From contig CM039007.1 of the NCBI GenBank assembly GCA_017499595.2, positions 1 to 64,000 on the forward strand: a DNA stretch of 64,000 nt, read 5' to 3'. Shown piece after piece: positions 1 through 26,949 of this stretch (the stretch's first letter is position 1; every line of letters begins with the position of its first letter). A program made the position numbers and the translations under genes. The notes beneath the pieces are model-generated. The model searched no databases and had not been told where the DNA came from. It saw only the letters and a list, made by a program, of their open reading frames with translations. The DNA is from Psilocybe cubensis (Eukaryota).

Positions 1-149
1 CTAAACCCTAAACCCTAAACCCTAAACCCTAAACCCTAAACCCTAAACCCTAAACCCTAAACCCTAAACCCTAAACCCTAAACCCTAAACCCTAAACCCT
101 AAACCCTAAACCCTAAACCCTAAACCCTAAACCCTAAACCCTAAACCCT
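1..149 (+). repeat. Terminal telomeric array (CCCTAAA)n = (TTTAGGG)n; left chromosome end
   Basis: About 21 perfect CCCTAAA units from base 1, with the C-rich strand on +. Confidence 0.97.
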
Positions 150-761
150 AAAAAACCCTAACCCTAAACCTAAACCTAAACCCTAAACCCTAAACCCTAA
201 GCCCTAACCTAACCCCAACCCTAAGCTAACTAAGTCTAACCTTAGTAGGAAGTAAGGTAGGCGTGTGAACTTCCGAAAGGCATGTGATTGTGAAGGGCCG
301 GATCTAATTTAGTACATGGGAAAAGTTACTTAGTACCTCGGGAAAAGTTCCTTAGTACCGTGGAAACATTTTTGATGGACCGGATCATGAACTGTCCAAT
401 TAAGATTCACAACAATCAATCAATTGATTGTTAGGTAAGGACCCAGGTAAGCTATTTATACTCTTGACATGAGAATATTCCCATGTCACGGTTACTCGGA
501 GCCACGTAACCAGAGTATTTTATATCCATGTGATTCACATCACAGTCAATAACCCACGATGTCAAAGAACAAAAGTGTTGGATCCACTTTTGACAGGTTA
601 CCATGTGCCACATCGACCCGTGACACTCTGTTCATCAGAGATCTGTCTAACTTGACAATAAACATTGACAGATTTGTGATAGTCGGTAAGATACATGACA
701 GCTGCGCAGCATCACTTCACGCGCTGTCATCGGATGTTCCAGAACATTCCTTCTAAGAATA

Positions 762-824
762 GCCACTGAAGAGTCTATAAAGACGAAAGGGCTGGCTGCT
801 GATAACAATCAACAGCCCTCTGGC
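762..824 (+). ncRNA. Type I hammerhead ribozyme; predicted cleavage after C820 (CUC)
   Basis: GCCA-CTGAAGA-GTCT/ATAA/AGAC-GAAA-GGGCTG...CAGCCC-TC-TGGC. The catalytic core is complete and stems I, II and III pair. Confidence 0.92.
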
Positions 825-858
825 CTTCTTTCCATTTAACTCACAGTTTAAACAAGTC

Positions 859-887
859 GCTCGCACCTCGCTTCGCTCGGTGCTCGC
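859..887 (+). promoter_or_regulatory. Conserved hairpin just upstream of the telomere-annealing site (putative RT recognition signal); repeated at the 3' end of every pLTR and fragment
   Basis: GC-TC-GCACC-TC-GCTTCGC-TC-GGTGC-TC-GC. It covaries with the family-2 copy at 26979-27013. Confidence 0.65.
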
Positions 888-931
888 TCCCCCCCTAAAC
901 CCAACGACTTTGCTATTACCCAACAGCTACT

Positions 932-2087
932 ATGTCTTCCACTTACTCTGCTGCCTTCTCTCGTGCCATGTCCCCCACCCTGGACGCACTCACCCAGGCT
1001 GTCGTCAACAACACAGTTTTTGGCGTCAACGACGAAGCTGGCCGCCACAACGCCCTCATCGACGAGTTGGCCACTGTCGTCATCAAGAAAATAGCTGAGT
1101 GCCGCTCCATTGACCAGATTGTAGACTGCGTCTTTTTTGACTATCGTGCTGCCCTTAGGGAGTTTCTCCTCAACCTCGCATCGTGGTGCGATAAGAGGGA
1201 AACAGTCAAGGCTAGCCTCGAGCGCCTTGAACTTGCCGTTAGCGCAGGCAACACCCCCAATCGCCTTCGGGTGAAGGCTCCCGAGTTCCAACTTACGAAG
1301 GAATTCGCGGATGCCGGGTCAGCGGAAGCTCTTCGAGTTTCCTCTACGTTCTCCACCGCTCGTGATGTCTTCCAAAAGGCAATCAACGACGGCGCCATTC
1401 AGGCGAAAAAGGACGAACTGGCCTTTTGGGATGATAAATGCGCACTCAATAACTGTTATGAAGCTGCTGCCCTCATCGTTAAGACAACTTACGATGATCG
1501 CAAATCCAGCTATAAGCTCCCCGTTTTCTCTACAGACAACAAGGGAGTTCGTCGAATAACAGATTGGGTAGTGTCACCGCAGAAGAAGGCTGAATGCAGC
1601 GCATTGCAAACCATTTTGCCAGCCATCTTCTCTCATATCAAACAGATTGTCAACTTGCGCCACCGCGCTTTGGCAATCAAGATTGAGAAAAAGCGGTCGA
1701 CTGCGGCAACAGCCGATGTCGAGATGGCCGATGCGACCAAACCAGGTCCATCGATTCAATCCCTTATTGATAAGGGCTTGAATGCACGTCTCAAGAAGCT
1801 CAACCTTGGATCTGTGGGCAAGAAGGCAAGTTCTCGTAACCCTTCACCCATAACTCTGGATACTAATTACTATTCTAATTACCCAGACTTTGTCTGGCCA
1901 GAATTCGTCCAAGGCTCCTCAACCTCAGGCCAAGAAAGCTGGCCCTTCGAAATTCAAACCCTCGTCGACGCCTTCGCAGAAGAAGCCCCAAACCAAGGCT
2001 TCCAACAAGGTCGACAACAAGAAGAAAGGGAAGGGGAGAGCTCCCGTCAAGAACGATCCAAAGGGAAAGGGAAAGGCAAGAGCCTAG
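932..2087 (+). CDS. Predicted spliced ORF1 protein (join 932-1825, 1887-2087; 364 aa) with a Lys-rich C-terminal tail
   Basis: AAG|GCAAGT donor, CTAAT branch and CCCAG acceptor define a 61-nt intron. Splicing joins in frame to the 1890-2087 ORF. Equivalent introns lie at 6991-7051 and 15783-15843. Confidence 0.7.
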
Positions 2088-4462
2088 ACGCGCGGTCTAA
2101 TGTAGTACCTTTTACGTCGGTAAGACCCGCCTTCCCCAACTCTATTCCTGACGATATACTCACCATGACTAAAACAGACGCAGTTTCTTTTGTACACTTA
2201 CATACGCCGATCTCATTCTTGTTGGCTGGCCAGTATCGTAGTAGTGTACACTGTAGTCCTGGTGTGGTGGTCCCTGTAGATATAGCAAATGATTTGTCAC
2301 TCGGACTCAATTATATGTTTTTTACTCTACCTTCTCAAAGTCTGATCATGCAAGCATGGAATGATTTTCAACGAAGAATAAGATGGCGTATCTATTTTTT
2401 GTTTAAGGAAGGCATGAACAAACCTTTTGATCCAGATTACGGAGTAAGCTCAAAAAAGAAAGAGAAACCTCCAGTATTACCGCAATACATGGAACTTGGC
2501 CTTTCGATGGGACGTCGGTACGTGCAACGCACGATCGCAAGTATCCCGGAAGAAGCCCTTACGGAGATGCGAAAGCACGCGTTCTCTCCTAAAAGGGACA
2601 AGATCCGTAAGTTTCTTATCGATAACAACTATGTTATTACGATGACAGATAAGAATCTTGGCCTCGCGGTGTCTGAACGCGACTGGATATTAAGGAATGA
2701 GCTCAATCTTCTTAAAGATGAACGTAACTATGAAGAGTTAGAATTCGAAGTTGCGCAAGAAGTAATGAAGAGCAAAATGATCCAGATGCAAACTCTTGCA
2801 CATACCGTCGAAGATGAACATCTGTTTCTATTTGAACTTGGGTTGTCTCGATTCTTTCTATCGAATGTACCGGAAGACGGATCATCGTTCAAGTACCCTC
2901 AATTTCATGGTATACCTAAAATCCACAAAAAACCTACTGGATTTAGGCCCATAATTCCGTGTCACTCTGTAGTATTTAATCCTGCAGCCAAGTTTGTATC
3001 AAAAGAGCTTAAGCCGATTATTAAATCGACTCCTTCAATCATTCACGGAACGAAGGATCTCTTTACGAGATTAAGCCAATTGCGTATAGACCCCAAACGA
3101 CAATGGTATTTTGTCACCGGGGATGTAGTTGCTTTCTATCCCAATATTCCGTTGGACTTGTGCATCGAAATCGTTTGTAATATGTACGAGGAATGGTTAC
3201 TCAACGCTTCGGAAGAAAACACTGCATTAGCCCATATTAATCCAAATTCGTTAGAGAATAACTTGGTTAAATTGGGCATCTTTAAACGTGCTATCGAGAT
3301 TGGCAATACGCAATTGATAACACAACATGGGTCTAGATATTTTAGACAAAAAAATGGCCTCGCAATGGGCGTCGCGGATTCTCCGGACCTTGCTAACCTC
3401 TTTGGAGCCCATTTTGAAATAAAGTCAAAAATCTTAGACCACCCAAACGTGGCCTTCTATGGAAGGTACATCGACGATTGTTTCGCAATTGTCTACGCCG
3501 AGTCCGAAGCACTTGCACTTAATCTTATTAAAGAAACAATAAAGTTCGATGGTTGTGTTATCGAATGGGCTGTTTCCTCGTCGGGATGTCAATTTCTCGA
3601 TGCTTTCATATTCAAGGAGTCTGGAAAACTTCATTGGAAGCCATTTGTCAAGACAGGAAACAACCGAGAACGAGTTCCATGGGTATCACATCATCCTTTG
3701 GACGTCAAACGTGGCGTCTACATTGGAGAGTTATCCAGGTTAGCCGTGCTATGTAGTACCAAGGAAATCTACATCGGAGCAATTAGAGACCTTAACGCTC
3801 TCTATTTGATGCGCGGTTATCCCGAAAACCTAGTCATGTCTTGGTGTAAGAAGAATATACAAGAACGTTGGGAAAAGCGATTCGCTTTACGAGTCGCAGA
3901 GCACGACGAATCCATTCTTGTACTTAAAACCAGATTTGATCAGGTATGGAATTGGTTTTCAGCTGCTGAACTTGGAAAAACTGTTACCGAGTACTGGTCG
4001 GCATGGTATGAACATGCCGAGAAAGGTTTGTATAGTGCAGACTCGTCCAGACCCCTTATCAAACCAGATCCAAATTACGTTCACGACCTCGATGATGTTC
4101 GCCCGGAGCTGTTCACACAGATCCTCGTGGACGGAGAAACTGAGTTCGTACCGGATTTGAGGAAGATAGGACTACTCGGAAGTCGTTGGATAGTATCGCG
4201 AAAACGCAATACTAATCTTTTCGACCTTGCAAATGTGTGGAAGAAAACAGTCTTTCGTAAACTGGATGAAGACATCGCTGAAAAAGGTGGTGTTGTTCCC
4301 GAAACTCAAAACGTTAATGAAACTTATCATTCTGCTTTAGTTGAAGCTGCTGAACAGATAAGTATCGAAAGTGATAACGAGATAATACTTCATAGACGTT
4401 CAATCTCACAAGAGAGGGAACATCCAGAATTCGGCAGAATATCCAAATCTTACAACCGATGA
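932..4462 (+). CDS. Penelope-like reverse transcriptase ORF (1176 aa if the internal intron is retained); no endonuclease
   Basis: RT motifs FHGIPKIHK, FRPIIP, TGDVVAFYPNIP, RQKNGLAMG, GRYIDDCF and QFLD, plus the thumb-region HHPLDVKRG. Confidence 0.92.
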   Translation: MSSTYSAAFSRAMSPTLDALTQAVVNNTVFGVNDEAGRHNALIDELATVVIKKIAECRSIDQIVDCVFFDYRAALREFLLNLASWCDKRETVKASLERLELAVSAGNTPNRLRVKAPEFQLTKEFADAGSAEALRVSSTFSTARDVFQKAINDGAIQAKKDELAFWDDKCALNNCYEAAALIVKTTYDDRKSSYKLPVFSTDNKGVRRITDWVVSPQKKAECSALQTILPAIFSHIKQIVNLRHRALAIKIEKKRSTAATADVEMADATKPGPSIQSLIDKGLNARLKKLNLGSVGKKASSRNPSPITLDTNYYSNYPDFVWPEFVQGSSTSGQESWPFEIQTLVDAFAEEAPNQGFQQGRQQEEREGESSRQERSKGKGKGKSLDARSNVVPFTSVRPAFPNSIPDDILTMTKTDAVSFVHLHTPISFLLAGQYRSSVHCSPGVVVPVDIANDLSLGLNYMFFTLPSQSLIMQAWNDFQRRIRWRIYFLFKEGMNKPFDPDYGVSSKKKEKPPVLPQYMELGLSMGRRYVQRTIASIPEEALTEMRKHAFSPKRDKIRKFLIDNNYVITMTDKNLGLAVSERDWILRNELNLLKDERNYEELEFEVAQEVMKSKMIQMQTLAHTVEDEHLFLFELGLSRFFLSNVPEDGSSFKYPQFHGIPKIHKKPTGFRPIIPCHSVVFNPAAKFVSKELKPIIKSTPSIIHGTKDLFTRLSQLRIDPKRQWYFVTGDVVAFYPNIPLDLCIEIVCNMYEEWLLNASEENTALAHINPNSLENNLVKLGIFKRAIEIGNTQLITQHGSRYFRQKNGLAMGVADSPDLANLFGAHFEIKSKILDHPNVAFYGRYIDDCFAIVYAESEALALNLIKETIKFDGCVIEWAVSSSGCQFLDAFIFKESGKLHWKPFVKTGNNRERVPWVSHHPLDVKRGVYIGELSRLAVLCSTKEIYIGAIRDLNALYLMRGYPENLVMSWCKKNIQERWEKRFALRVAEHDESILVLKTRFDQVWNWFSAAELGKTVTEYWSAWYEHAEKGLYSADSSRPLIKPDPNYVHDLDDVRPELFTQILVDGETEFVPDLRKIGLLGSRWIVSRKRNTNLFDLANVWKKTVFRKLDEDIAEKGGVVPETQNVNETYHSALVEAAEQISIESDNEIILHRRSISQEREHPEFGRISKSYNR

Positions 4463-4511
4463 AAAGAATACTAGCGCGTAAGGCGTAAAGCATTAGAAAA
4501 AAACCCTAACC

Positions 4512-4574
4512 GTAAGTATTCCTTGCTACAAAGTAACAAACATCTACTTACAAGCAACACATTGGATTAAATAG
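4512..4574 (+). other. 63-nt spliceosomal intron interrupting a telomeric tract (also at 9680-9742, 13071-13133 and 18472-18534)
   Basis: AAACCCTAACC|GTAAGT...ATAG|CTAAACC. Precisely spliced versions are present at 163/164 and 5325/5326. Confidence 0.88.
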
Positions 4575-5172
4575 CTAAACCTAAACCTAAACCCTAAACC
4601 CTAAACCCTAAGCCCTAACCTAACCCCAACCCTAAGCTAACTAAGTCTAACCTTAGTAGGAAGTAAGGTAGGCGTGTGAACTTCCGAAAGGCATGTGATT
4701 GTGAAGGGCCGGATCTAATTTAGTACATGGGAAAAGTTACTTAGTACCTCGGGAAAAGTTCCTTAGTACCGTGGAAACATTTTTGATGGACCGGATCATG
4801 AACTGTCCAATTAAGATTCACAACAATCAATCAATTGATTGTTAGGTAAGGACCCAGGTAAGCTATTTATACTCTTGACATGAGAATATTCCCATGTCAC
4901 GGTTACTCGGAGCCACGTAACCAGAGTATTTTATATCCATGTGATTCACATCACAGTCAATAACCCACGATGTCAAAGAACAAAAGTGTTGGATCCACTT
5001 TTGACAGGTTACCATGTGCCACATCGACCCGTGACACTCTGTTCATCAGAGATCTGTCTAACTTGACAATAAACATTGACAGATTTGTGATAGTCGGTAA
5101 GATACATGACAGCTGCGCAGCATCACTTCACGCGCTGTCATCGGATGTTCCAGAACATTCCTTCTAAGAATA

Positions 5173-5235
5173 GCCACTGAAGAGTCTATAAAGACGAAAG
5201 GGCTGGCTGCTGATAACAATCAACAGCCCTCTGGC
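5173..5235 (+). ncRNA. Hammerhead ribozyme (variant A)
   Basis: Same sequence as 762-824. Confidence 0.92.
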
Positions 5236-5924
5236 CTTCTTTCCATTTAACTCACAGTTTAAACAAGTCGCTCGCACCTCGCTTCGCTCGGTGCTCGCTC
5301 CCCCCCTAAACCCTAAACCCTAACCCTAAACCTAAACCCTAAACCCTAAACCCTAAACCCTAACCTAACCCCAACCCTAAGCTAACTAAGTCTAACCTTA
5401 GTAGGAAGTAAGGTAGGCGTGTGAACTTCCGAACGGCATGTGATTGTGAAGGGCCGGATCTAATTTAGTACATGGGAAAAGTTACTTAGTACTTCGGGAA
5501 AAGTTCCTTAGTACCGTGGAAACATTTTTGATGGACCGGATCATGAACTGTCCAATTAAGATTCACAACAATCAATCATTCTATTGTTTGATTGTTAGGT
5601 AAGGACCCAGGTAAGCTATTTATACTCTAGACATGTGAATATTCCCATGTCGCGGTTACTCGGAGCCACGTAACCAGAGTAATCTATATCCATGTGATTC
5701 ACATCACAGTCAATAACCCACGATGTCAAAGAACAAAAGTGTTGGATCCACTTTTGACAGGTTACCATGTGCCACATCGACCCGTGACACTCTGTTCATC
5801 AGAGACCTGTCTAACTTGACAATAAACATTGACAGATTTGTGATAGTCGGTAAGATACATGACAGCTGCGCAGCATCACTTCACGCGCTGTCATCGGATG
5901 TCTAGAACATTCCTTCTAAGAATA

Positions 5925-5987
5925 GCCACTGAAGAGTCTATAAAGACGAAAGGGCTGGTTGTTGGGATCCCCCAACAGCCCTCTGGC
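5925..5987 (+). ncRNA. Hammerhead ribozyme (variant B)
   Basis: Same core. The distal part of stem III is TTGGG/ATCC/CCCAA. Confidence 0.92.
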
Positions 5988-6096
5988 CTTCTTTCTATTT
6001 CAAACTCACAGTTTAAACTAGTCGCTCGCACCTCGCTTCGCTCGGTGCTCGCTCCCCCCCTAAACCCAACGACTTTGCTATCACCCATCAGTTACC

Positions 6097-9000
6097 ATGT
6101 CATCCCAATACTCTGCTGCATTCTCTCGTGCCATGTCCCCTACCCTGGACGCACTCACCCAGGCCGTCGTCAACAACACTGTCTTCGGCGTCAACGATGA
6201 AGCAGGCCGCCATAACGCTCTTATCGACGAGCTGGCCACTGTGGTCATCAAAAAAATAGCTGAGTGCCGCTCCGTTGACCAAGTCATAGACTGCGTCTTT
6301 TTTGACTATCGTGCTGCCCTCAGGGAGTTTCTCCTCAACCTCGCATCGTGGTGCGACAAGAGGGAAACAGTCAAGGCTAGCCTCGAGCGCCTTGAATCTG
6401 CCGTTAGCGCAGGCAACACGCCCAATCGCCTTAAGGTGAAGGCACCCGAGTTCCAACTTACGAAGGAATTCGCGGATGCCGGGTCAGCGGAGGCTCTTCG
6501 AGTCTCCACTACGTTCTCTTCCGCTCGTGATGCCTTCCAAAAGGCAATTAACGACGGCGCCGTTCAGGCGAAAAAGGACGAGCTGGCTTTTTGGGATGAT
6601 AAATGCGCGCTCAACTCTTGCTACGAAGCTGCTGCCCTCATCGTTAAGGCAACTTACGATGATCGCAAATCCAGCTACAAGCTCCCTGTTTTCTCTACAG
6701 ACAACAAGGGAGTTCGACGTATAGCAGAGTGGGTAGTGTCTCCGCAAAAGAAAGCCGAATGCAGTGCGCTGCAAACTATACTGCCGGCGATCTTTTCTCA
6801 TATCAAACAGATTGTCAACATGCGCCACCGCGCCTTGGCAATTAAGATTGAGAAAAAGCGGACGACTGCGGCAACAGCCGATGTCGAGATGGCCGATGCG
6901 ACCAAACCAGGTCCATCGATTCAATCCCTTATTGATAAGGGCTTGAATGCACGTCTCAAAAAGCTCAACCTTGGATCTGTGGGCAAGAAGGCAAGTTTTC
7001 GTAACCCTTCACCCATAATTCTGGACACTAATTATTACTCTAATTACCCAGACTTTGTCTGGCCAGAATTCGTCCAAGGCTCCTCAACCTCAGGCCAGGA
7101 AAGCTGGCCCTTCGAAACCCAAGTCGTCGTCGACGCCTTCGCAGAGGAAGCCTCAAACCAAGGCTTCCAACAAGGTCGACAACAAGAAGAAAGGGAAGGG
7201 GAGAGCTCCCGTCAAGAACAACGATCCAAAGGGAAAGGGAAAGGCAAGAGCCTAGACGCGCGGTCTACTGTAGCATCATTTACGTCGGTGAGACCCGCCT
7301 TCCCCAACTCTATTCCTGACGATATACTCACCATGACTAAAACAGACGCAGTTTCTTTTGTACACCTCAATACCCCGATTTCATTCTTATTGGCTGGCCA
7401 GTATAGATCTAGTGTACACTGTAGTCCTGGTGTTTCGGTCCCTGTTGATGTAGCAAATGATTTATCTCTTGGACTCAATTATATGTTTTTTACACTGCCT
7501 TCTAAAAATCTGATCATGCAAGCATGGAATGATTTTCAACGAAGAATAAGATGGCGTATCTATTTTTTGTTTAAAGAAGGCATGAATAAACCTTTCGATC
7601 CAGACTATGGAGTAAGCTCTAAAAAGAAAGAGAAACCTCCAATGTTACCGCAATTTATGGAACTTGGCCTTTCAATGGGACGTCGGTACGTTATTAAAAC
7701 GATCGCAAGTATCCCGGAAGAAGCCCTTAAAGAGATGCGAAAGCACGCGTTCTCTCCTAAAAGGGACAAGATCCAAAAGTTTCTTTTCGATAACAACTAT
7801 GTTATTACGATGACAGATAAGAATCTTGGCCTCGCGGTGTCTGAACGCGACTGGATATTAAGGAATGAGCTCAATCTTCTTGAAGATGAACGCAACTACG
7901 AAGAGTTAGAATTCGAAGTTGCGCAAGAAGTTATGAAGAGCAAAATGATTCAGATGCAAACTCTCGCACGTACCGTCGAAGATGAACATCTGTTTCTATT
8001 TGAACTTGGGTTGTCTCGATTCTTTCTATCGAATGTACCGGAAGACGGATCATCGTTCAAGTATCCTCAATTTCATGGTATACCTAAAATCCACAAGAAA
8101 CCTACTGGATTTAGGCCCATAATTCCGTGTCACTCTGTAGTATTTAATCCTGCAGCCAAGTTTGTATCAAAAGAGCTTAAGCCGATTATTAAATCGACTC
8201 CTTCAATCATTCACGGAACGAAGGATCTCTTTACGAGATTAAGCCAATTGCGTATAGACCCCAAACGACAATGGTATTTTGTCACCGGGGATGTAGTTGC
8301 TTTCTATCCCAATATTCCGTTGGACTTGTGCATCGAAATCGTTTGTAATATGTACGAGGAATGGTTACTCAACGCTTCGGAAGAGAACACTGCATTAGCC
8401 CATATTAATCCAAATTCGTTAGAGAATAACTTGGTTAAATTGGGCATCTTTAAACGTGCTATCGAGATTGGCAATACGCAATTGATAACACAACATGGGT
8501 CTAGATATTTTAGACAAAAAAATGGCCTCGCAATGGGCGTCGCGGATTCTCCGGACCTTGCTAACCTCTTTGGAGCCCATTTTGAAATAAAGTCAAAAAT
8601 CTTAGACCACCCAAACGTGGCCTTCTATGGAAGGTACATCGACGATTGTTTCGCAATTGTTTACGCCGAGTCCGAAGCACTTGCACTTAATCTTATTAAA
8701 GAAACAATAAAGTTCGATGGTTGTGTTATCGAATGGGCTGTTTCCTCGTCGGGATGTCAATTTCTCGATGCTTTCATATTCAAGGAGTCTGGAAAACTTC
8801 ATTGGAAGCCATTTGTCAAGACAGGAAACAACCGAGAACGAGTTCCATGGGTATCACATCATCCTTTGGACGTCAAACGTGGCGTCTACATTGGAGAGTT
8901 ATCCAGGTTAGCCGTGCTATGTAGTACTAAGGAAATCTACATCGGAGCAATTAGAGACCTTAACGCTCTCTATTTGATGCGCGGTTATCCCGAAAACCTA

Positions 9001-9630
9001 GTCATGTCTTGGTGTAAGAAGAATATACAAGAACGTTGGGAAAAGCGATTCGCTTTACGAGTCGCAGAGCACGACGAATCCATTCTTGTACTTAAAACCA
9101 GATTTGATCAGGCATGGAATTGGTTTTCAGCTGCTGAACTTGGAAAGACTGTTACCGAGTACTGGTCGGCATGGTATGAACATGCCGAGAAAGGTCTGTA
9201 TAGTGCAGACTCGTCCAGACCCCTTATCAAACCAGATCCAAATTACGTTCACGACCTCGATGATGTTCGCCCGGAGCTGTTCACACAGATCCTCGTGGAC
9301 GGAGAAACTGAGTTCGTACCGGATTTGAGGAAGATAGGACTACTCGGAAGTCGTTGGATAGTATCGCGAAAGCGCAATACTAATCTTTTCGACCTTGCAA
9401 ATGTGTGGAAGAAAACAGTCTTTCGTAAACTGGATGAAAACATCGCTGAAAAAGGTGGTGTTGTTCCCGAAACTCAAAACGTTAATGAAACTTATCATTC
9501 TGCTCTAGTTGAAGCTGCTGAACAGATAAGTATCGAAAGTGATAACGAGATAATACTTCATAGACGTTCAATCTCACAAGAGAGGGAACATCCAGAATTC
9601 GGCAGAATATCCAAATTTTACAACCGATGA
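6097..9630 (+). CDS. Penelope-like RT ORF, copy 2 (1177 aa)
   Basis: Near-identical to copy 1, with all RT motifs intact. Confidence 0.92.
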   Translation: MSSQYSAAFSRAMSPTLDALTQAVVNNTVFGVNDEAGRHNALIDELATVVIKKIAECRSVDQVIDCVFFDYRAALREFLLNLASWCDKRETVKASLERLESAVSAGNTPNRLKVKAPEFQLTKEFADAGSAEALRVSTTFSSARDAFQKAINDGAVQAKKDELAFWDDKCALNSCYEAAALIVKATYDDRKSSYKLPVFSTDNKGVRRIAEWVVSPQKKAECSALQTILPAIFSHIKQIVNMRHRALAIKIEKKRTTAATADVEMADATKPGPSIQSLIDKGLNARLKKLNLGSVGKKASFRNPSPIILDTNYYSNYPDFVWPEFVQGSSTSGQESWPFETQVVVDAFAEEASNQGFQQGRQQEEREGESSRQEQRSKGKGKGKSLDARSTVASFTSVRPAFPNSIPDDILTMTKTDAVSFVHLNTPISFLLAGQYRSSVHCSPGVSVPVDVANDLSLGLNYMFFTLPSKNLIMQAWNDFQRRIRWRIYFLFKEGMNKPFDPDYGVSSKKKEKPPMLPQFMELGLSMGRRYVIKTIASIPEEALKEMRKHAFSPKRDKIQKFLFDNNYVITMTDKNLGLAVSERDWILRNELNLLEDERNYEELEFEVAQEVMKSKMIQMQTLARTVEDEHLFLFELGLSRFFLSNVPEDGSSFKYPQFHGIPKIHKKPTGFRPIIPCHSVVFNPAAKFVSKELKPIIKSTPSIIHGTKDLFTRLSQLRIDPKRQWYFVTGDVVAFYPNIPLDLCIEIVCNMYEEWLLNASEENTALAHINPNSLENNLVKLGIFKRAIEIGNTQLITQHGSRYFRQKNGLAMGVADSPDLANLFGAHFEIKSKILDHPNVAFYGRYIDDCFAIVYAESEALALNLIKETIKFDGCVIEWAVSSSGCQFLDAFIFKESGKLHWKPFVKTGNNRERVPWVSHHPLDVKRGVYIGELSRLAVLCSTKEIYIGAIRDLNALYLMRGYPENLVMSWCKKNIQERWEKRFALRVAEHDESILVLKTRFDQAWNWFSAAELGKTVTEYWSAWYEHAEKGLYSADSSRPLIKPDPNYVHDLDDVRPELFTQILVDGETEFVPDLRKIGLLGSRWIVSRKRNTNLFDLANVWKKTVFRKLDENIAEKGGVVPETQNVNETYHSALVEAAEQISIESDNEIILHRRSISQEREHPEFGRISKFYNR

Positions 9631-10341
9631 AAAGAATACTAGCGCGTAAGGCGTAAAGCATTAGAAAAAAACCCTAACCGTAAGTATTCCTTGCTATAAA
9701 GTAACAAACATCTACTTACAAGCAACACTTTGGATTAAATAGCTAAACCTAAACCCTAAACCCTAAACCCTAAACCCTAACCTAACCCCAACCCTAAGCT
9801 AACTAAGTCTAACCTTAGTAGGAAGTAAGGTAGGCGTGTGAACTTCCGAACGGCATGTGATTGTGAAGGGCCGGATCTAATTTAGTACATGGGAAAAGTT
9901 ACTTAGTACTTCGGGAAAAGTTCCTTAGTACCGTGGAAACATTTTTGATGGACCGGATCATGAACTGTCCAATTAAGATTCACAACAATCAATCATTCTA
10001 TTGTTTGATTGTTAGGTAAGGACCCAGGTAAGCTATTTATACTCTAGACATGTGAATATTCCCATGTCGCGGTTACTCGGAGCCACGTAACCAGAGTAAT
10101 CTATATCCATGTGATTCACATCACAGTCAATAACCCACGATGTCAAAGAACAAAAGTGTTGGATCCACTTTTGACAGGTTACCATGTGCCACATCGACCC
10201 GTGACACTCTGTTCATCAGAGACCTGTCTAACTTGACAATAAACATTGACAGATTTGTGATAGTCGGTAAGATACATGACAGCTGCGCAGCATCACTTCA
10301 CGCGCTGTCATCGGATGTCTAGAACATTCCTTCTAAGAATA

Positions 10342-10404
10342 GCCACTGAAGAGTCTATAAAGACGAAAGGGCTGGTTGTTGGGATCCCCCAACAGCCCTC
10401 TGGC
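10342..10404 (+). ncRNA. Hammerhead ribozyme (variant B)
   Basis: Same sequence as 5925-5987. Confidence 0.92.
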
Positions 10405-10523
10405 CTTCTTTCTATTTCAAACTCACAGTTTAAACTAGTCGCTCGCACCTCGCTTCGCTCGGTGCTCGCTCCCCCCCTAAACCCTAAACCCTAAACCCTA
10501 AACCCTAAACCCTAAACCCTAAA

Positions 10524-10601
10524 GCCTTCTTTCTATTTCAAACTCACAGTTTAAACTAGTCGCTCGCACCTCGCTTCGCTCGGTGCTCGCTCCCCCCCTA
10601 A
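10524..10601 (+). mobile_element. ~78-nt pLTR 3'-end fragment flanked by telomeric repeats
   Basis: Starts GCCTTCTTTCT, 2 nt downstream of the predicted hammerhead cut site, and ends at CCCCCCCTAA. Confidence 0.85.
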
Positions 10602-10615
10602 CCCTAAACCCTAAA

Positions 10616-13600
10616 TCCAAAGGGAAAGGGAAAGGCAAGAGCCTAGATGCGCGGTCTAATGTAGTACCTTTTACGTCGGTGAGACCCGCCTTCCCCAACT
10701 CTATTCCTGACGATATACTCACCATGACTAAAACAGACGCAGTTTCTTTCGTACACTTACATACTCCAATATCATTCTTGTTGGCTGGCCAGTATCGTAG
10801 TAGTGTACATTGTAGTCCTGGTGTTTCTGTCCCTGTTGATGTAGCAAACGATCTCTCTCTCGGACTTAATTATATGTTTTTCACTCTGCCTTCTAAAAGT
10901 CTGATCATGCAAGCATGGAATGATTTCCAACGAAGAATAAGATGGCGTATCTATTTTTTGTTTAAGGAAGGCATGAATAAACCTTTTGATCCAGATTATG
11001 GAGTAAGCTCAAAAAAGAAAGAGAAACCTCCTGTATTACCGCAATATATGGAACTTGGCCTTTCGATGGGACGTCGGTACGTGCAACGCACGATCGCAAG
11101 TATCCCGGAAGAAGCCCTTACGGAGATGCGAAAGCACGCGTTCTCTCCTAAAAGGGACAAGATCCGTAAGTTTCTTATCGATAACAACTATGTTATTACG
11201 ATGACAGATAAGAATCTTGGCCTCGCGGTGTCTGAACGCGACTGGATATTAAGGAATGAGCTCAATCTTCTTGAAGATGAACGTAATTACGAAGAGTTAG
11301 AATTCGAAGTTGCGCAAGAAGTTATGAAGAGCAAAATGATTCAGATGCAAACGCTCGCACGTACTGTCGAAGATGAACATCTGTTTCTATTTGAACTTGG
11401 GTTGTCTCGATTCTTTCTATCGAATGTACCGGAAGACGGATCATCGTTCAAGTATCCTCAATTTCATGGTATACCTAAAATCCACAAGAAACCTACTGGA
11501 TTTAGGCCCATAATTCCGTGTCACTCTGTAGTATTTAATCCTGCAGCCAAGTTTGTATCAAAAGAGCTTAAGCCGATTATTAAATCGACTCCTTCAATCA
11601 TACACGGAACGAAGGATCTCTTTACGAGATTAAGCCAATTGCGTATAGACTCCAAAAGACAATGGTATTTTGTCACTGGAGATGTAGTTGCTTTCTATCC
11701 CAATATTCCGTTGGACTTGTGCATCGAAATCGTTTGTAGTATGTACGAGGAATGGTTACTCAACGCTTCGGAAGAAAACACTGCATTAGCCCATATTAAT
11801 CCAAATTCGTTAGAGAATAACTTGGTTAAATTGGGCATCTTTAAACGTGCTATCGAGATTGGCAATACGCAATTGATAACACAACATGGGTCTAGATATT
11901 TTAGACAAAAAAATGGCCTCGCAATGGGCGTCGCGGATTCTCCGGACCTTGCTAACCTCTTTGGAGCCCATTTTGAAATAAAGTCAAAAATCTTAGACCA
12001 CCCAAACGTGGCCTTCTATGGAAGGTACATCGACGATTGTTTCGCAATTGTTTACGCCGAGTCCGAAGCACTTGCACTTAATCTTATTAAAGAAACAATA
12101 AAGTTCGATGGTTGTGTTATCGAATGGGCTGTTTCCTCGTCGGGATGTCAATTTCTCGATGCTTTCATATTCAAGGAGTCTGGAAAACTTCATTGGAAGC
12201 CTTTTGTCAAGACAGGAAACAACCGAGAACGAGTTCCATGGGTATCACATCATCCTTTGGACGTCAAACGTGGCGTCTACATTGGAGAGTTATCCAGGTT
12301 AGCCGTGCTATGTAGTACCAAGGAAATCTACATCGGAGCAATTAGAGACCTTAACGCTCTCTATTTGATGCGCGGTTATCCCGAAAACCTAGTCATATCT
12401 TGGTGTAAGAAGAATATACAAGAACGTTGGGAAAAGCGATTCGCTTTACGAGTCGCAGAGCACGACGAATCCATTCTTGTACTTAAAACCAGATTTGATC
12501 AGGTATGGAATTGGTTTTCAGCTGCTGAACTTGGAAAAACTGTTACCGAGTACTGGTCGGCATGGTATGAACATGCCGAGAAAGGTTTGTATAGTGCAGA
12601 CTCGTCCAGACCCCTTATCAAACCAGATCCAAATTACGTTCACGACCTCGATGATGTTCGCCCGGAGCTGTTCACACAGATCCTCGTGGACGGAGAAACT
12701 GAGTTCGTACCGGATTTGAGGAAGATAGGACTACTCGGAAGTCGTTGGATAGTATCGCGAAAACGCAATACTAATCTTTTCGACCTTGCAAATGTGTGGA
12801 AGAAAACAGTCTTTCGTAAACTGGATGAAGACATCGCTGAAAAAGGTGGTGTTGTTCCCGAAACTCAAAACGTTAATGAAACTTATCATTCTGCTTTAGT
12901 TGAAGCTGCTGAGCAGATAAGTATCGAAAGTGATAACGAGATAATACTTCATAGACGTTCAATCTCACAAGAGAGGGAACATCCAGAATTTGGCAGAATA
13001 TCCAAATCTTACAACCGATGAAAAGAATACTAGCGCTTAAGGCGTAAAGCATTAGAAAAAAACCCTAACCGTAAGTATTCCTTGCTATAAAGTAACAAAC
13101 ATCTACTTACAAGCAACACATTGGATTGAATAGCTAAACCTAAACCTAAACCCTAAACCCTAAACCCTAAACCCTAACCTAACCCCAACCCTAAGCTAAC
13201 TAAGTCTAACCTTAGTAGGAAGTAAGGTAGGCGTGTGAACTTCCGAACGGCATGTGATTGTGAAGGGCCGGATCTAATTTAGTACATGGGAAAAGTTACT
13301 TAGTACTTCGGGAAAAGTTCCTTAGTACCGTGGAAACATTTTTGATGGACCGGATCATGAACTGTCCAATTAAGATTCACAACAATCAATCATTCTATTG
13401 TTTGATTGTTAGGTAAGGACCCAGGTAAGTTATTTATACTCTAGACATGTGAATATTCCCATGTCGCGGTTACTCGGAGCCACGTAACCAGAGTAATCTA
13501 TATCCATGTGATTCACATCACAGTCAATAACCCACGATGTCAAAGAACAAAAGTGTTGGATCCACTTTTGACAGGTTACCATGTGCCACATCGACCCGTG

Positions 13601-13878
13601 ACACTCTGTTCATCAGAGACCTGTCTAACTTGACAATAAACATTGACAGATTTGTGATAGTCGGTAAGATACATGACAGCTGCGCAGCATCACTTCACGC
13701 GCTGTCATCGGATGTCTAGAACATTCCTTCTAAGAATAGCCACTGAAGAGTCTATAAAGACGAAAGGGCTGGTTGTTGGGATCCCCCAACAGCCCTCTGG
13801 CTACTTTCCATTTAACTCCCAGTTTAAACTAGTCGCTCGCACCTCGCTTCGCTCGGTGCTCGCTCCCCCCCTAAACCC
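10616..13878 (+). mobile_element. Family-1 copy 3, 5'-truncated and capped by telomeric repeats; RT frame open to 13021
   Basis: CCCTAAA joins directly to TCCAAAGGGAAAGGG (ORF1/RT boundary). The 3' pLTR is complete. Confidence 0.9.
13739..13801 (+). ncRNA. Hammerhead ribozyme (variant B, stem I extended to TAGCCA/TGGCTA)
   Basis: Core and all three stems are intact. Confidence 0.92.
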
Positions 13879-13910: not shown

Positions 13911-14088
13911 CTTCACGCGCTGTCATCGGATGTCTAGAACATTCCTTCCAAGAATAGCCACTGAAGAGTCTATAAAGACGAAAGGGCTGGTTGTTGGGAT
14001 CCCCCAACAGCCCTCTGGCCTTCTTTCTATTTCAAACTCACAGTTTAAACTAGTCGCTCGCACCTCGCTTCGCTCGGTGCTCGCTCCC
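13911..14088 (+). mobile_element. ~180-nt pLTR 3' fragment including a hammerhead (13957-14019)
   Basis: Flanked by CCCTAAA tracts on both sides. Confidence 0.85.
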
Positions 14089-14139
14089 ACCCTAAACCCT
14101 AAACCCTAAACCCTAAACCCTAAACCCTAAACCCTAAAC

Positions 14140-17100
14140 CCTAAACCCTAAACCCTAAGCCCTAACCTAACCCCAACCCTAAGCTAACTAAGTCTAACCT
14201 TAGTAGGAAGTAAGGTAGGCGTGTGAACTTCCGAAAGGCATGTGATTGTGAAGGGCCGGATCTAATTTAGTACATGGGAAAAGTTACTTAGTACCTCGGG
14301 AAAAGTTCCTTAGTACCGTGGAAACATTTTTGATGGACCGGATCATGAACTGTCCAATTAAGATTCACAACAATCAATCAATTGATTGTTAGGTAAGGAC
14401 CCAGGTAAGCTATTTATACTCTTGACATGAGAATATTCCCATGTCACGGTTACTCGGAGCCACGTAACCAGAGTATTTTATATCCATGTGATTCACATCA
14501 CAGTCAATAACCCACGATGTCAAAGAACAAAAGTGTTGGATCCACTTTTGACAGGTTACCATGTGCCACATCGACCCGTGACACTCTGTTCATCAGAGAT
14601 CTGTCTAACTTGACAATAAACATTGACAGATTTGTGATAGTCGGTAAGATACATGACAGCTGCGCAGCATCACTTCACGCGCTGTCATCGGATGTTCCAG
14701 AACATTCCTTCTAAGAATAGCCACTGAAGAGTCTATAAAGACGAAAGGGCTGGCTGCTGATAACAATCAACAGCCCTCTGGCTACTTTCCATTTAACTCA
14801 CAGTTTAAATTAGTCGCTCGCACCTCGCTTCGCTCGGTGCTCGCTCCCCCCCTAAACCCAACGACTTTGCTATTATCCATCAGCCACTATGTCATCCCAA
14901 TACTCTGCTGCTTTCTCTCGTGCCATGTCCCCCACCCTGGACGCACTCACCCAGGCCGTCGTCAACAACACCGTCTTCGGCGTCAACGATGAAGCAGGCC
15001 GCCATAACGCTCTGATCGACGAGCTGGCCACTGTGGTCATCAAAAAAATAGCTGAGTGCCGCTCCGTTGACCAAGTCATAGACTGCGTCTTTTTTGACTA
15101 TCGTGCTGCCCTTAGGGAGTTTCTCCTCAACCTCGCATCGTGGTGCGATAAGAGGGAAACAGTCAAGGCTAGCCTCGAGCGCCTTGAATCTGCCGTTAGC
15201 GCAGGCAACACACCCAATCGCCTTAAGGTGAAGGCACCCGAGTTCCAACTTACGAAGGAATTCGCGGATGCCGGGTCAGCGGAGGCTCTTCGAGTCTCCA
15301 CTACGTTCTCTACCGCTCGTGACGCCTTCCAAAAGGCAATTAACGACGGCGCCGTTCAGGCGAAAAAGGACGAGCTGGCTTTTTGGGATGATAAATGCGC
15401 GCTCAACTCTTGCTACGAAGCTGCTGCCCTCATCGTTAAGGCAACTTACGATGATCGCAAATCCAGCTACAAGCTCCCTGTTTTCTCTACAGACAACAAG
15501 GGAGTTCGACGTATAGCAGAGTGGGTAGTGTCTCCGCAAAAGAAAGCCGAATGCAGTGCGCTGCAAACTATACTGCCGGCGATCTTTTCTCATATCAAAC
15601 AGATTGTCAACATGCGCCACCGCGCCTTGGCAATTAAGATTGAGAAAAAGCGGATGACTGCGGCAACAGCCGATGTCGAGATGGCCGACGCGACCAAACC
15701 AGGTCCGTCGATTCAATCCCTTATTGATAAGGGCTTGAATGCACGTCTCAAGAAGCTCAACCTTGGATCTGTGGGCAAGAAGGCAAGTTTTCGTAACCCT
15801 TCACCCATAATTCTGGATACTAATTATTACTCTAATTACCCAGACTTTGTCTGGCCAGAATTCGTCCAAGGCTCCTCAACCTCAGGCCAGGAAAGCTGGC
15901 CCTTCGAAACCCAAGTCGTCGTCGACGCCTTCGCAACGCAAGCCTCAAACCAAGGCTTCCAACAAGGTCGACAACAAGAAGAAAGGGAAGGGGAGAGCTC
16001 CCGTCAAGAACAACGATCCAAAGGGAAAGGGAAAGGCAAGAGCCTAGACGCGCGGTCTACTGTAGCATCATTTACGTCGGTGAGACCCGCTTTCCCCAAC
16101 TCTATTCCTGACGATATACTCACCATGACTAAAACAGACGCAGTTTCTTTCGTACACTTACATACTCCAATATCATTCTTGTTGGCTGGCCAGTATCGTA
16201 GTAGTGTACATTGTAGTCCTGGTGTTTCTGTCCCTGTTGATGTAGCAAACGATCTCTCTCTCGGACTTAATTATATGTTTTTCACTCTGCCTTCTAAAAG
16301 TCTGATCATGCAAGCATGGAATGATTTTCAACGAAGAATAAGATGGCGTATCTATTTTTTGTTTAAGGAAGGCATGAATAAACCTTTTGATCCAGATTAT
16401 GGAGTAAGCTCAAAAAAGAAAGAGAAACTCCCAGTATTACCGCAATACATGGAACTTGGCCTTTCGATGGGACGTCGGTACGTGCAACGCACGATCGCAA
16501 GTATCCCGGAAGAAGCCCTTACGGAGATGCGAAAGCACGCGTTCTCTCCTAAAAGGGACAAGATCCGTAAGTTTCTTATCGATAACAACTATGTTATTAC
16601 GATGACAGATAAGAATCTTGGCCTCGCGGTGTCTGAACGCGACTGGATATTAAGGAATGAGCTCAATCTTCTTGAAGATGAACGTAACTACGAAGAGTTA
16701 GAATTCGAAGTTGCGCAAGAAGTGATGAAGAGCAAAATGATACAGATGCAAACGCTCGCACGTACTGTCGAAGATGAACATCTGTTTCTATTTGAACTTG
16801 GGTTGTCTCGATTCTTTCTATCGAATGTACCGGAAGACGGATCATCGTTCAAGTATCCTCAATTTCATGGTATACCTAAAATCCACAAGAAACCTACTGG
16901 ATTTAGGCCCATAATTCCGTGTCACTCTGTAGTATTTAATCCTGCAGCCAAGTTTGTATCAAAAGAGCTTAAGCCGATTATTAAATCGACTCCTTCAATC
17001 ATACACGGAACGAAGGATCTCTTTACGAGATTAAGCCAATTGCGTATAGACTCCAAAAGACAATGGTATTTTGTCACTGGAGATGTAGTTGCTTTCTATC

Positions 17101-19287: not shown

Positions 19288-19369
19288 TGGCCTTCTTTCC
19301 ATTTAACTCACAGTTTAAACAAGTCGCTCGCACCTCGCTTCGCTCGGTGCTCGCTCCCCCCCTAAACCC
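19288..19369 (+). mobile_element. 82-nt pLTR fragment beginning exactly at the hammerhead cleavage site
   Basis: AAACCCT|TGGCCTTCTTTCC...CCCCCCCTAAACCC matches 821-902. Confidence 0.88.
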
Positions 19370-19387
19370 TAAACCCTAAACCCTAAG

Positions 19388-22300
19388 CCAGTGCGCTGGC
19401 ACGATCAGTACGGGTGGATCGCCTTCATACCCTTGGCGCCATCATTCGTGTCCTTGCCGTTTAATTTTTTGTGCTGGTCTCCAAAGATTTTGCGCAATAA
19501 ACCGCACAAGTCTCCGGCCACGTATGAAATGGAGTGGCACAGCGTAAAAGAATGGCGCCAATTGGATGAAAACATAACCCTTCTGTGCGAAAAGATCCGC
19601 TTATGGTGTCGCGTTCCTGGAACCCCACCTCCTAGCCCCAAAAGCTTCGGTTATGATCTCAGGTATAGCTCTGAAGCAGACGCGCAAAGGAGCTTTGAGG
19701 CCACCCGAAACGCGTTTATCCTGTGGATGGGCTACCTGTCGTATCTCGTCGCCCAAAGTCGTCGCGAGATCTATTCAAAGCACATCAAGCACGATCCCAA
19801 AAGCCCCGTCCCTGCATGGCATGAACGCCTCCGCGCTGAGCATCCTGACATCTCAGAAGTATGGCTGGATGGCTTGTATCATTCCAACGTATTTTCGTTT
19901 AACGCCAGAACCCCTCGTGTCGGCATGGTCTACGAGTTGAGCAGCACCCACGCGACACGCCCTCCCATCGAATGGCTTCTGGAACACCATGTTCCAGTCT
20001 ATTATCCGTGGCGGATGCGGGAAGAGGAAATCTTCCTCACCCATAAAATACTCAATCTCGAACTTCGCCCCCCGCGCGACTTGTTGGCGGCGACACTTAC
20101 AGACCTATTCAAGTCAATGGACGTGTCTCTCGCAGCCGCCTTTGCGCGCAAATTTTTTAATAAATCTCATTCGACGGAGGGCCTCACGATGAAGTTGCTG
20201 GGAGATGAGTACTCCACTACTTTGGTGTATTCTATCCTCAGTAACGATTTCGCCCACAACTCAGAGGCATTGGACCAGCACATGTCCCAGCCGTATGAAG
20301 AATTGGAACGGAAGCTCCAAAAGAGAGACGAGGAACAGCGTCAGCTCGCCATTGACAGCGCCAACCTGCCTACGCTGCGCATGATTGAACTGGCGAATGA
20401 AAACCACAAGCTGCTGACCTCCGTGCATGACGACTGGGATGCTTACTGGGCTGCAAGGGTGGAAGAACGGCGACGGATTCTGGCCAAAGAGACGCCAGAA
20501 GCTAGACAGGCTCGGCTGAACCGAGAGAACAACCCATCGGTGGTACGTAGCAAAGTATTTGTCTGGAAAACGCTGGTGTCCACAGAGGGAGCCAGCGTTT
20601 ACATGCGCGAACACATCGCAACGTCACGAAACAGCATCGAGGAGGCCAAACTTTGCCCACACCGCAAGGTCTACAACGGTGTGACCGACGAATGGGATCT
20701 CTGTCGAGATTTGGAACCACCAGCCGAGTTGGCAGGCGCATCCGCAATGTTGGACCAGCGCAATCAGGCACAGACAAGGCCTGCTAGAGGCCAGCATCGC
20801 CGCGGTAGAGGTGTACGTCCCGCAAAACAACCCAGGCAGCACCCGAAACCAGCACCTGCCGAGGAAGAGTGGGAAGGCGTACCCTGGTACGACACCATTG
20901 AACCTGACCCCGATGCGCCGGTGGCCTCAACGTCGGCCCTTCCCCCCGCTCGTAATCCTTCCCCACCCCCTTTGCCTCCAAACAACCCGCCTGTCATTGA
21001 GGTTCCGACACCCTCGTCATCGCGAGATAGACCCCGCCGCGCACCCACGACACCCCCACGGCCCACACTAGGACGCCGACCGCGCAGTCGCTCGCCAACA
21101 CCCCCAGAGGTTGCAACGCGCTCTCGCCCACGAGCACGTCGTTCCCCAGAGAGCGAGTCGCGGGTCCAACAGAGCCCCCCTGCCGTCGTCGAAGATTTCG
21201 AGATGGAGGAAGCAGGCCCATCTGTTGAGGATGAAAATGCGGATGTTGAGATGACCACGGACGCGCCCGCCACGGATGTTGTGCAACCCCAGCCCATTAC
21301 ACCCGACAACGATATGGTCAGATGCCTGCGCCAATCTTACGGCTACCTCCCTGGCACAACGACGACGCCCTGTGCCGCTGCAGACTGGGATGAACTGGTC
21401 GAAACCTTTGGGTTTACAGAGTTACTTACCCCAGAAGTTGCCCTGGACGCTCAACAACACATCAAACAGTTTTATCTGGCTTGCATTGAACCCACAAGCA
21501 CAGAAATGCCCGCCGCCCTCTCTGACCTCAATACGCACAGCCTGACATCCCTGTCTCGTCTGCTGGACCTCTCGCAAATACACCGCCCCCATGAAAATCT
21601 GTTTGTTTTTTCAGAACCTCGTTCAGAGGAACACGAGTGGATGTTGGGTGTCGAAACGGCGGAGATCGCCCTTTACGTGTGTCGGCTCAGGTTAGAGCAC
21701 TCCTGGGCTCGCATCGACTCCCTCACAAAAATGCTGCTGGAGAGAGGTGTGCCCTGTCGCACTCTCATGGGCATTGAAATGTCGGGTCGCTGCTCCACTG
21801 TCCAGGAGCCGTACACCCCTCGATCTGTCCGCCCGTCAGCGTATAAATTTGGTGTTGATGACTTTGAAGCATACCGATTGCAATGCGAGAACATCATCAA
21901 ACACCAACAACACGGTCGGGCTGCCTTGCTGAGGGGTGGATTGGTGGGTAGGATAGCCAGTGAGTTTCTGAGCGTCGACGATGGGCTGGCTGGCCCCTCT
22001 AAGGAAATCATTCAGAACCGGCAGGGGTTCATCGTGCCAGCTGGCGACACGACTTGGTGTTATTGCGACGACCAGCTCACCGAGAACGAGCTGTCCATTA
22101 TATGCGGCACCTACACGCTGTACACAGGTATGTTTTCCTTGTTTATTCTCAATTTTATGCACTAACAACATTTTTCTCAGCTACTAAAGGTCAAATAACT
22201 GTAAAATCGTGGTTCCCTCCCCCGAACCTGTGGCAGGTGCCCCCCAGCATGAACGGATCACAATGGGTGGAATGGACGCCTGCCAACGAGGCATGGTACC

Positions 22301-26879: not shown

Positions 26880-26949
26880 TGGACCTGATGAGCCTTATAA
26901 AAAGGCGAAAAAGTGGAAGGGAGCTTCTCCAAGCCCCCACTTTTGTCCA
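26880..26949 (+). ncRNA. Type I hammerhead ribozyme of family 2; predicted cleavage after 26944 (UUU)
   Basis: TGGAC-CTGATGA-GCCTT/ATAAA/AAGGC-GAAA-AAGTGG...CCACTT-TT-GTCCA. Confidence 0.88.

Follow-up and report, generated by a model that had tools for sequence, protein, structure and literature searches.

Endonuclease-deficient Penelope-like elements attach to the G-rich overhang of chromosome ends by means of reverse-complement telomere repeats that lie beside a hammerhead motif, as laid out in the available parts of the reports on them (PMC8557442, PMC6431247). Since 2003 it has been asked where the flanking repeats of Penelope-like elements come from, and how their introns are kept up despite RNA-mediated copying. 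Earlier proposals for their replication have invoked antisense templates and unspliced sense templates (PMC3846280) and, in the accessible passages of another report, a circular RNA that is copied more than once (PMC4209133). In Coprina-1_Alen of Ascochyta lentis, as described in the accessible portions of PMC13159263, the ORFs lie between copies of two direct repeats, R1 (63 bp) and R2 (255 bp). The 5' copies of R1 and R2 abut each other, whereas the 3' copies are 104 bp apart, and one of 12 full-length elements has kept these 104 bp at the 5' end. The pseudo-LTR of Penelope of Drosophila virilis contains an intron of 75 nt and transcription starts 46 nt ahead of it, both spliced and unspliced RNAs are found, and the intron is kept in genomic copies; the accessible passages of this report contain no mention of Penelope repeats that differ by an intron (PMC2377424). 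According to the same passages, Penelope differs from the elements considered below in possessing a GIY-YIG endonuclease and in being inserted inside chromosomes (PMC2377424).

The window analyzed here, namely the whole 64-kb stretch of Psilocybe cubensis DNA (contig CM039007.1, positions 1 to 64,000), has its left end at a chromosome end, with the C-rich strand on the plus strand in the form of a terminal telomere array of about 21 perfect CCCTAAA units (1-149). Behind the telomere lies an array of four elements (E1-E4) and three fragments, all on the plus strand and head-to-tail, spaced by about 2-9 telomere units, with unique DNA from ~19387 onward. The sense strand of every copy is on the C-rich strand and its 3' end is centromere-ward. 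The complete elements, i.e. E1 (150-5313), E2 (5315-10484) and E4 (~14100-19272), possess a single ORF each, of 1176-1177 aa (932-4462 in E1, 1176 aa; 6097-9630 in E2, 1177 aa; 14889-18422 in E4), which is preceded by a 5' repeat (150-902 in E1, 5315-6067 in E2, ending at 14859 in E4) and followed by an intron-bearing 3' end, while E3 (10616-13878) is 5'-truncated within the ORF. The remaining members of the array are two short additions comprising 82 nt of the repeat 3' end (10524-10605, with telomere repeats on both sides, and 19288-19369) and a 188-nt 5'-truncated repeat fragment between telomere tracts (13912-14099). The units of the array end in C7 followed by TAAACCC and then pass into telomere units, the terminal telomere unit of each 3' repeat being CCCTAAACCC and continuous with the telomere repeats. 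Further along the plus strand lies a divergent second family (23814-27035, with an RT ORF at 23814-26033), whose 3' end is similar to that of the array elements (family 1) and which has no 5' repeat copy within the 64-kb window; the last ~45 nt of the repeat are the sole repeat part with similarity (81-89%) between the two families. The arrangement of the array is the one described, in the available text, for endonuclease-deficient Penelope-like elements (PMC8557442, PMC6431247), and the best explanation for the left end of the window is a chromosome tip with successive additions of endonuclease-less Penelope-like elements of the Coprina type.

Pfam searches with the 1176-aa ORF recovered no match at E<=0.01 and, at E<=5, only an irrelevant sub-threshold hit to DUF6026 (E 0.073). 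Neither a GIY-YIG endonuclease nor an integrase domain was detected in the ORF with Pfam up to E<=5, the translation contains no GIY..YIG motif, and a phmmer search of the reverse transcriptase (RT) part against PDB sequences yielded 0 matches at E<=1. The protein, in which an N-terminal gag-like part is combined with the RT and no endonuclease was found, contains PKIHK and YIDD, which we take to be RT motifs of the Penelope-like family. It also contains a DKN motif (in MTDKNLG), which the accessible text of PMC13159263 gives as typical of Penelope-like elements. Among 5.8 billion proteins 194 relatives were recovered, and those closest among the named ones, all hypothetical proteins, belong to Psilocybe cubensis (98-99% identity) and, in one case, to Lentinula edodes (45%). 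When RVT_1 was searched for in six homologues with E values near 1e-190 or lower against the ORF, P0110 scored above the cut-off (34.7 vs 29.6 bits), P0073 and P0018 scored just below it, and three gave no match. A collection of viral contigs yielded no relative of the element. The element displays the features of Penelope-like elements, namely the RT motifs, the lack of a GIY-YIG domain, a terminal position with the 5' end telomere-ward and telomere-capped, and a hammerhead motif; it does not display those of LTR retrotransposons, there being no integrase and the addition at ends occurring without target duplication. With the Coprina clade, as characterized in the available parts of PMC8557442 and PMC13159263, it shares a single RT ORF without GIY-YIG, a basidiomycete host, a chromosome-end location, telomere-facing capped 5' ends, a 3' reverse-complement telomere unit and a hammerhead in the flanking repeat, the label 'Coprina type' resting on this architecture and host.

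The two repeats of E1 differ by a single precise removal. The 3' UTR of E1 closes with an A7 run and CCCTAACC (4497-4511), which form the end of exon 1 and are followed by a retained 63-nt GT..AG segment (4512-4574) and the 3' pseudo-LTR (4575-5313). The 5' repeat at 150-895 equals the element's own 3' repeat minus 4512-4574, base for base. From the junction 163/164 the match extends 14 nt upstream, through an exon-1 remnant at 150-163 (six A + CCCTAACC), and 732/732 nt downstream to the repeat end, so that the sequence-only reading, which had seen in 150-200 a spliced junction with six of the seven A's, is borne out. The body of the 5' pseudo-LTR from exon 2 onward (164-902, with C7 + TAAACCC at its end) is identical to 4575-5313, and in-silico removal of 4512-4574 gave an exact match of 140 nt at 150-289 in the first kilobase, where nothing but the query slice itself set the limit. 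A second spliced junction, which had been proposed at 5325/5326, was likewise recovered: the E2 5' repeat matches its own 3' repeat after removal of the intron at 9680-9742 over 11 nt upstream (the exon-1 remnant 5315-5325) and 735/735 nt downstream, and this match includes repeat irregularities specific to E2. A 24-nt junction word occurs in the 64 kb only at 153 and 5315 with one mismatch allowed (chance expectation 0.00, 100 shuffles), and it is not present in the other telomere-type tracts of the window.

The E1 junction, with its A6 run, is the one unambiguous case, and those of E2 and of a metagenomic relative (L013, see below) each hang on a single irregular unit. In E2 the junction is told apart from a telomerase-capped truncation only by one CCCTAA unit, in place of CCCTAAA, and by the register, and irregular units of this kind are also seen in ~3 of the ~50 other repeat units of the window. 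The 5' repeat of E4 starts (~14100) within regular CCCTAAA units, at least 13 nt past the junction, and carries no information on splicing. At the other end of the elements the picture is uniform: as had been claimed for the four 3' pseudo-LTRs, all of those of family 1 keep the intron (4512-4574, 9680-9742, 13071-13133 and 18472-18534), with the bodies of the 3' repeats following at 9743-10484 in E2, 13134-13878 in E3 and 18535-19272 in E4. The single 3' repeat of the second family in the window also has an intron (26542-26606), located behind an A7 run and CCCTAACC (26527-26541). That the 5' repeats end within the A-run is not borne out as a rule, as the 5' boundaries relative to the junction vary from -14 in E1 and -11 to -5 in E2 to at least +13 in E4 and about +11 in the relative L011. 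All of them lie within the telomere-like tract and the unique 3' UTR is never reached; this spread is compatible with an RNA that ends at the A-run, with some sequence then being lost and the end healed.

The removed 63-nt segment is located inside the telomere-like tract and has the form GTAAGT...ATAG, with a branch-like CTTAC ~24 nt before the 3' end. With its GT..AG ends, a consensus 5' splice site, a fungal length and conserved signals around a diverged interior, it has, by its sequence, the properties of a spliceosomal-type intron. The sequencing runs listed as containing the stretch in whole or in part (17, of which 12 share half or more of its sampled words, from nine studies) include none recorded as RNA, and the removal is thus read from DNA copies. 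A protein-guided scan of metagenome contigs recovered 22 loci whose best segments have 30-74% amino-acid identity, and 15 of these display a GT..AG segment of 49-66 nt at the same place, bounded by telomere-like units. The segments of the relatives start with GTAAGT, GTGAGT or GTAAAC and end in AG, their interiors differ between families, and they are often preceded by an A-rich run and a unit ending in ...TAACC and followed by a tract starting with CTAACC or similar. The telomere unit has 7 nt (CCCTAAA) here vs 6 nt in the metagenome relatives; with 6-nt units splicing would give a perfect telomere repeat across the junction, and the spliced state would therefore be nearly invisible. In L013 (45% amino-acid identity, from an unrelated sample) exon 2 (126/126 nt) directly follows, at the contig start, the final 10 nt of exon 1 with their irregular CC, whereas an intron of 58 nt is present in the 3' copy. 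The intron is missing from the 5' repeats of L006 and L011 too, but these are ambiguous or truncated. Many of the contigs, L001, L009, L010 and L013 among them, are of unit length with overlapping ends; a reading of these as tandem arrays was discarded in favor of assembly repeat collapse, and their long-range order was discounted.

Given the precise removal of a GT..AG segment in the sense orientation, the observations support the 5' repeat being a reverse transcript of spliced sense RNA. Similarly, the intron-bearing 3' repeats support their derivation from unspliced sense RNA, and the orientation of these repeats together with their telomere-repeat junctions fits reverse transcription that is primed by the G-rich overhang and has sense RNA as its template. 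Of the earlier proposal that spliced and unspliced RNAs are both used in one insertion, this part therefore stands: exact GT..AG removal on one side and intron-bearing 3' repeats on the other indicate that both RNA states were copied from sense RNA.

The alignment of the seven repeats, with E1, E2 and E4 of this one chromosome end as the complete elements, further indicates when the spliced copy would have been made. The 5' and 3' repeats of the same element show 0 substitutions and 0 indels over ~730 columns in all three complete elements, vs from 3 substitutions and 1 indel up to 27 and 3 between repeats of different elements (26 and 4 for E1 vs E2). Inheritance of both repeats through a full-length RNA would let them diverge, and their perfect covariation hence points to one source for both in each cycle; the identity within elements, taken with the differences between them, makes it most likely that the spliced 5' copy is remade at each cycle rather than simply inherited. 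Since the source carries the intron, it would be a 3'-type repeat. A copy of the 3' repeat made from DNA, e.g. by break-induced or t-loop synthesis, was rejected as it would bring the intron along, and the 5' copy must accordingly have passed through spliced RNA. E4 is a mosaic with E1-type repeats at both ends and an E2-type ORF1, for which a single crossover suffices under rebuilding of the 5' repeat from the 3' repeat, whereas inheritance of both repeats would take two. Both repeats thus appear to be re-derived in each cycle, in an LTR-like manner, from the parent's intron-bearing 3' repeat.

The boundary between the 5' repeat and the 5' UTR is equally regular, consisting of exactly one telomere unit in all three elements and in the relatives L001, L002, L006, L007, L009 and L013. 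The constancy of this single unit, vs the variable telomerase tracts between additions, argues for continuous or precisely switched synthesis across it. The within-element covariation runs through 75 nt downstream of the hammerhead site, to ~45 nt from the repeat end, and any template switch must therefore lie within the last ~45 nt.

The hammerhead itself is situated at 762-824 in the E1 5' repeat, with predicted cleavage after ...CAGCCCTC (820/821 in E1), and at ~26881-26948 in the second family. Rfam RF03152 aligns three of the repeats at 26.8-29.1 bits, below its gathering score of 56.3, and in 14 of the 22 metagenome loci Rfam gave no hammerhead at E<=0.5. A descriptor of our own recovers a type I hammerhead in eight copies of the window (seven repeats and one fragment) and at 15/22 of the relatives' loci, with invariant cores CTGANGA and GAAA and covariation in all three helices; in the minimum-free-energy fold of 748-840 helix II is formed and the full hammerhead is not. 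Among the three short additions, two start at or close to the predicted cleavage site, one with the first base after it (+1, 19288) and the other 2 nt downstream of that point (+3, 10524), which suggests hammerhead cleavage in vivo. Alternatively, a polymerase might have halted at the junction in the hammerhead fold and so given these starts. Repeat variants also recombine within ~14 nt of the cleavage site, E3 and E4 having the same downstream variant with different upstream variants. A TATA-like TTTAAA ~40 nt before the repeat end was considered as a start-site signal and rejected, as it is not conserved in the relatives.

The reading that we favor, to which we would assign a probability of about one half, is a two-template scheme in which an unspliced RNA serves for the body of the element and a second, spliced RNA for the 5' repeat. 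In this scheme copying would begin at the terminal telomere unit of an unspliced sense RNA and proceed across its 3' repeat and ORF. On reaching the single telomere unit of the repeat/5'-UTR boundary, or a point no more than ~45 nt away from it, synthesis would change templates and continue from the 3' end of another RNA, which is spliced and has the same repeat. This RNA would then be copied up to the telomere-like tract and the A-run at its 5' end, and telomerase would extend the telomere-like cDNA end thus formed. Transcription of the second RNA probably starts near the A-run, as the case of Penelope of Drosophila virilis suggests by analogy. Two considerations count against the scheme: trans-acting RNAs of co-expressed variants should sometimes give mismatched pairs of repeats, and none of the three complete elements has such a pair; and the consistently unspliced state of the first template (four of four 3' repeats in family 1 and the one in family 2) is left unaccounted for. 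A stronger, retrovirus-like form of the scheme, which we advance more tentatively, holds that a dedicated short spliced repeat transcript makes splicing a built-in part of replication. Such a transcript would start at the A-run, end in a telomere unit and pair with the end of the nascent cDNA; it would rebuild the promoter-bearing 5' repeat and leave a telomere seed at the new tip, and it may also prime the second strand.

Of the alternatives, the one that fares best, even if unlikely in our estimate, replaces the two templates by one longer-than-unit RNA that is transcribed from tandem or circular DNA, with one repeat being read twice. Such an RNA would start near the A-run, run through repeat, ORF and repeat, be spliced only at the cap-proximal intron and be copied in a single pass from its telomere-primed 3' end, so that identical repeats, the seamless one-unit junction and a 5' end limited to the A-run would all result with no need to switch templates. 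The sequence-only reading had placed spliced and unspliced RNAs at separate steps of one insertion, and this part of it is one possible reading, as the same data fit one longer-than-unit RNA spliced only at the 5'-proximal copy of the intron. However, two identical introns in one RNA would have to meet opposite fates almost every time. Moreover, the window contains no tandem or circular form with shared repeats, its 3' repeats running instead into telomere units or into the 5' repeat of another element, and the metagenome contigs with overlapping ends are what assembly repeat collapse is expected to produce and hence lend this alternative no support.

It is rather improbable that the asymmetry goes back to a single ancestral loss of the intron from the 5' repeat, with full-length RNA being copied ever since and gene conversion keeping the repeats identical. 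The intron is admittedly so close to the 5' limit of the homology, a mere 14-21 nt being shared on its upstream side, that conversion could miss it, and subtelomeres recombine readily. Nevertheless, the contrast between 0 differences within each of the three elements and up to 27 substitutions plus indels between lineages would call for many conversions per lineage, and the E4 mosaic would take two exchanges. The same asymmetry in L013 and in the ascomycete element, of which one copy in 12 keeps the segment at the 5' end according to the accessible description (PMC13159263), would further imply repeated events.

A still less probable candidate invokes two successive additions, with an element devoid of a 5' repeat being added first and a separate short spliced repeat RNA later. 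Repeat-only short additions are indeed present in the array (10524-10605, 13912-14099 and 19288-19369), but independent additions are flanked by ~3-9 telomerase-made units, unlike the boundary of 5' repeat and 5' UTR with always exactly one, and independent events should often pair different variants, which is seen in 0/3 elements. Finally, an origin of the junctions without splicing, through slippage deletion, an irregular telomerase stretch or an assembly or polishing artefact, can practically be set aside: the telomerase-made tracts of the window do hold occasional CCCTAA and CCCTAAAA units, by which the E2 junction taken alone might be explained, but the E1 junction of A6 + CCCTAACC is not obtainable from telomerase repeats, the observed product is not the one expected from a deletion between the CTAA microhomologies on either side, the removed segments keep the form GTAAGT/GTGAGT...AG across families despite their differing interiors, polishing would pull copies toward one sequence rather than yield three distinct matched pairs, and a junction-bearing contig (L013) is also found in an unrelated metagenome.

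Set against other systems, the locus is closest in its asymmetry to Coprina-1_Alen, in which the 5' and 3' ends differ in the same manner, although the 104 bp are not called an intron in the available passages and the element is known to us from its description rather than its sequence (PMC13159263). That element differs in having two ORFs and an ascomycete host, and its 5' repeat reaches 63 bp upstream of the missing segment, as opposed to 14 nt or less here (PMC13159263, in the parts accessible). LTR retrotransposons and retroviruses also have terminal repeats that are identical within a copy and different between copies; this pattern implies that a single template region gives rise to both repeats anew in every cycle, and it allows the upstream copy to serve as a promoter. 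Unlike in those elements, there is no integrase here, priming would occur at the chromosome end and the repeats differ by an intron. TART and HeT-A of Drosophila belong to the non-LTR (LINE-like) elements and have poly(A) tails, their host lacks telomerase, and to our knowledge they have neither a hammerhead nor an intron asymmetry. Resemblances to the present elements are found in their telomere-specific head-to-tail arrays, the available text describing perfect non-terminal repeats in TART, and HeT-A arrays that are LTR-element-like 'from promoter to promoter' (PMC5537684).

The circular-RNA rolling-circle model for Penelope-like elements and retrozymes, as presented in the accessible passages of PMC4209133 and 10.64898/2026.07.22.740005, is consistent with the locus in that each repeat has a hammerhead, the repeats are identical and the repeat joins the ORF seamlessly. 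However, a single circle predicts the same intron state in both repeats, and these states differ in E1 and E2. For this clade the unequal intron states thus argue against the single-circle form of the rolling-circle model, at least as the available part of PMC4209133 presents it. The position of the sense strand on the C-rich strand, taken together with the spliced junction, indicates that the sense RNA is the template, and hence argues, for this clade, against the model of antisense templates, a point that bears on the choice between antisense and unspliced sense templates left by PMC3846280.

The element type, the telomeric arrays, the hammerhead and the retention of the intron are already known. 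The literature searched, which lay outside the founding Coprina paper, was not found to state that the 5' repeat is a spliced form of the 3' repeat, nor that the repeats are identical within an element or that both are rebuilt from one source per cycle. Against this background the locus provides a natural marker, in that one repeat would have come by way of spliced and the other by way of unspliced sense RNA from one source sequence. If splicing is indeed a built-in step of replication, as in the retrovirus-like form of the two-template scheme, it would explain the upkeep of the intron in these elements. The locus further points to an LTR-like regeneration of a promoter-bearing repeat, and it has a bearing on how a relative of telomerase returns a new chromosome end to telomerase.

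The repeats (5' and 3' pseudo-LTRs) of the four head-to-tail Coprina-type Penelope-like elements of family 1 (E1-E4) are mosaics of sequence variants, with the breakpoint situated at most about 14 nt from the predicted cleavage site of the hammerhead motif that each of them carries (window 813-860 and the corresponding sites of the remaining repeats). The upstream part of the repeat is B-type in E3 and A-type in E4; despite this difference the two elements have in common a downstream variant beginning with TGGCTAC, in which helix I of the hammerhead motif comprises 6 bp instead of 4 bp. Three short additions between telomere tracts consist of repeat sequence only; relative to the same predicted site, one of them (10524-10605) starts at +3 and another (19288-19369) at +1. 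These two additions look as though reverse transcription had copied onto the chromosome end nothing but the 3' product of ribozyme cleavage.

Farther inward than E1-E4, window 19373-27045 holds a second, divergent family of telomere-type Penelope-like elements. Its RT ORF (23814-26033), which displays 46% identity to residues 473-1115 of E1, lies downstream of a 930-aa open frame (19373-22165), for which no Pfam family was found, and of internal tandem repeats (approximately 22.7-23.6 kb). As in family 1, an A7 run and CCCTAACC precede an intron (26542-26606), which is followed in order by a telomere-like tract, a hammerhead motif and the 3' end; the 3' ends of the two families are 81-89% similar across about 60 nt. 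The 64-kb window contains no 5' repeat copy of the second family.

The host telomere unit at window 1-149 is the 7-nt CCCTAAA, while several metagenome loci with related elements (L003, L006, L013 and others) possess 6-nt CCCTAA units. The closest named proteins come from an agaric, yet the host unit here is of 7 nt, and the unit that closes exon 1 of the window element is still of the 6-nt type (CCCTAACC). On another metagenome contig, L017, a sub-threshold match to the Rfam group I intron (2067-2326; score 32.7 bits, gathering cut-off 50, E 1.6e-4) is positioned 3' of a related element.

The copia-type polyprotein frame at 42070-45381 (Pfam RVT_2, rve and gag_pre-integrs) and the NLR-like frame at 51732-53273 (NPHP3_N with a NACHT-type P-loop) are ordinary subtelomeric content. 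In the metagenome locus L020 (1060-1110) the 3' repeat stops at a C-run followed by TAAC and abuts non-telomeric DNA without a telomere tract; its element has 67% identity in a short matched C-terminal segment, the value for the same family in L002 being 74%. Here the element may have been added not to a telomere but to an end that was broken or healed. In the window, the interstitial telomere tracts at 26611-26638 and 27017-27045, which lie 26-27 kb inward of the chromosome end, mark former end positions that were buried by later additions.
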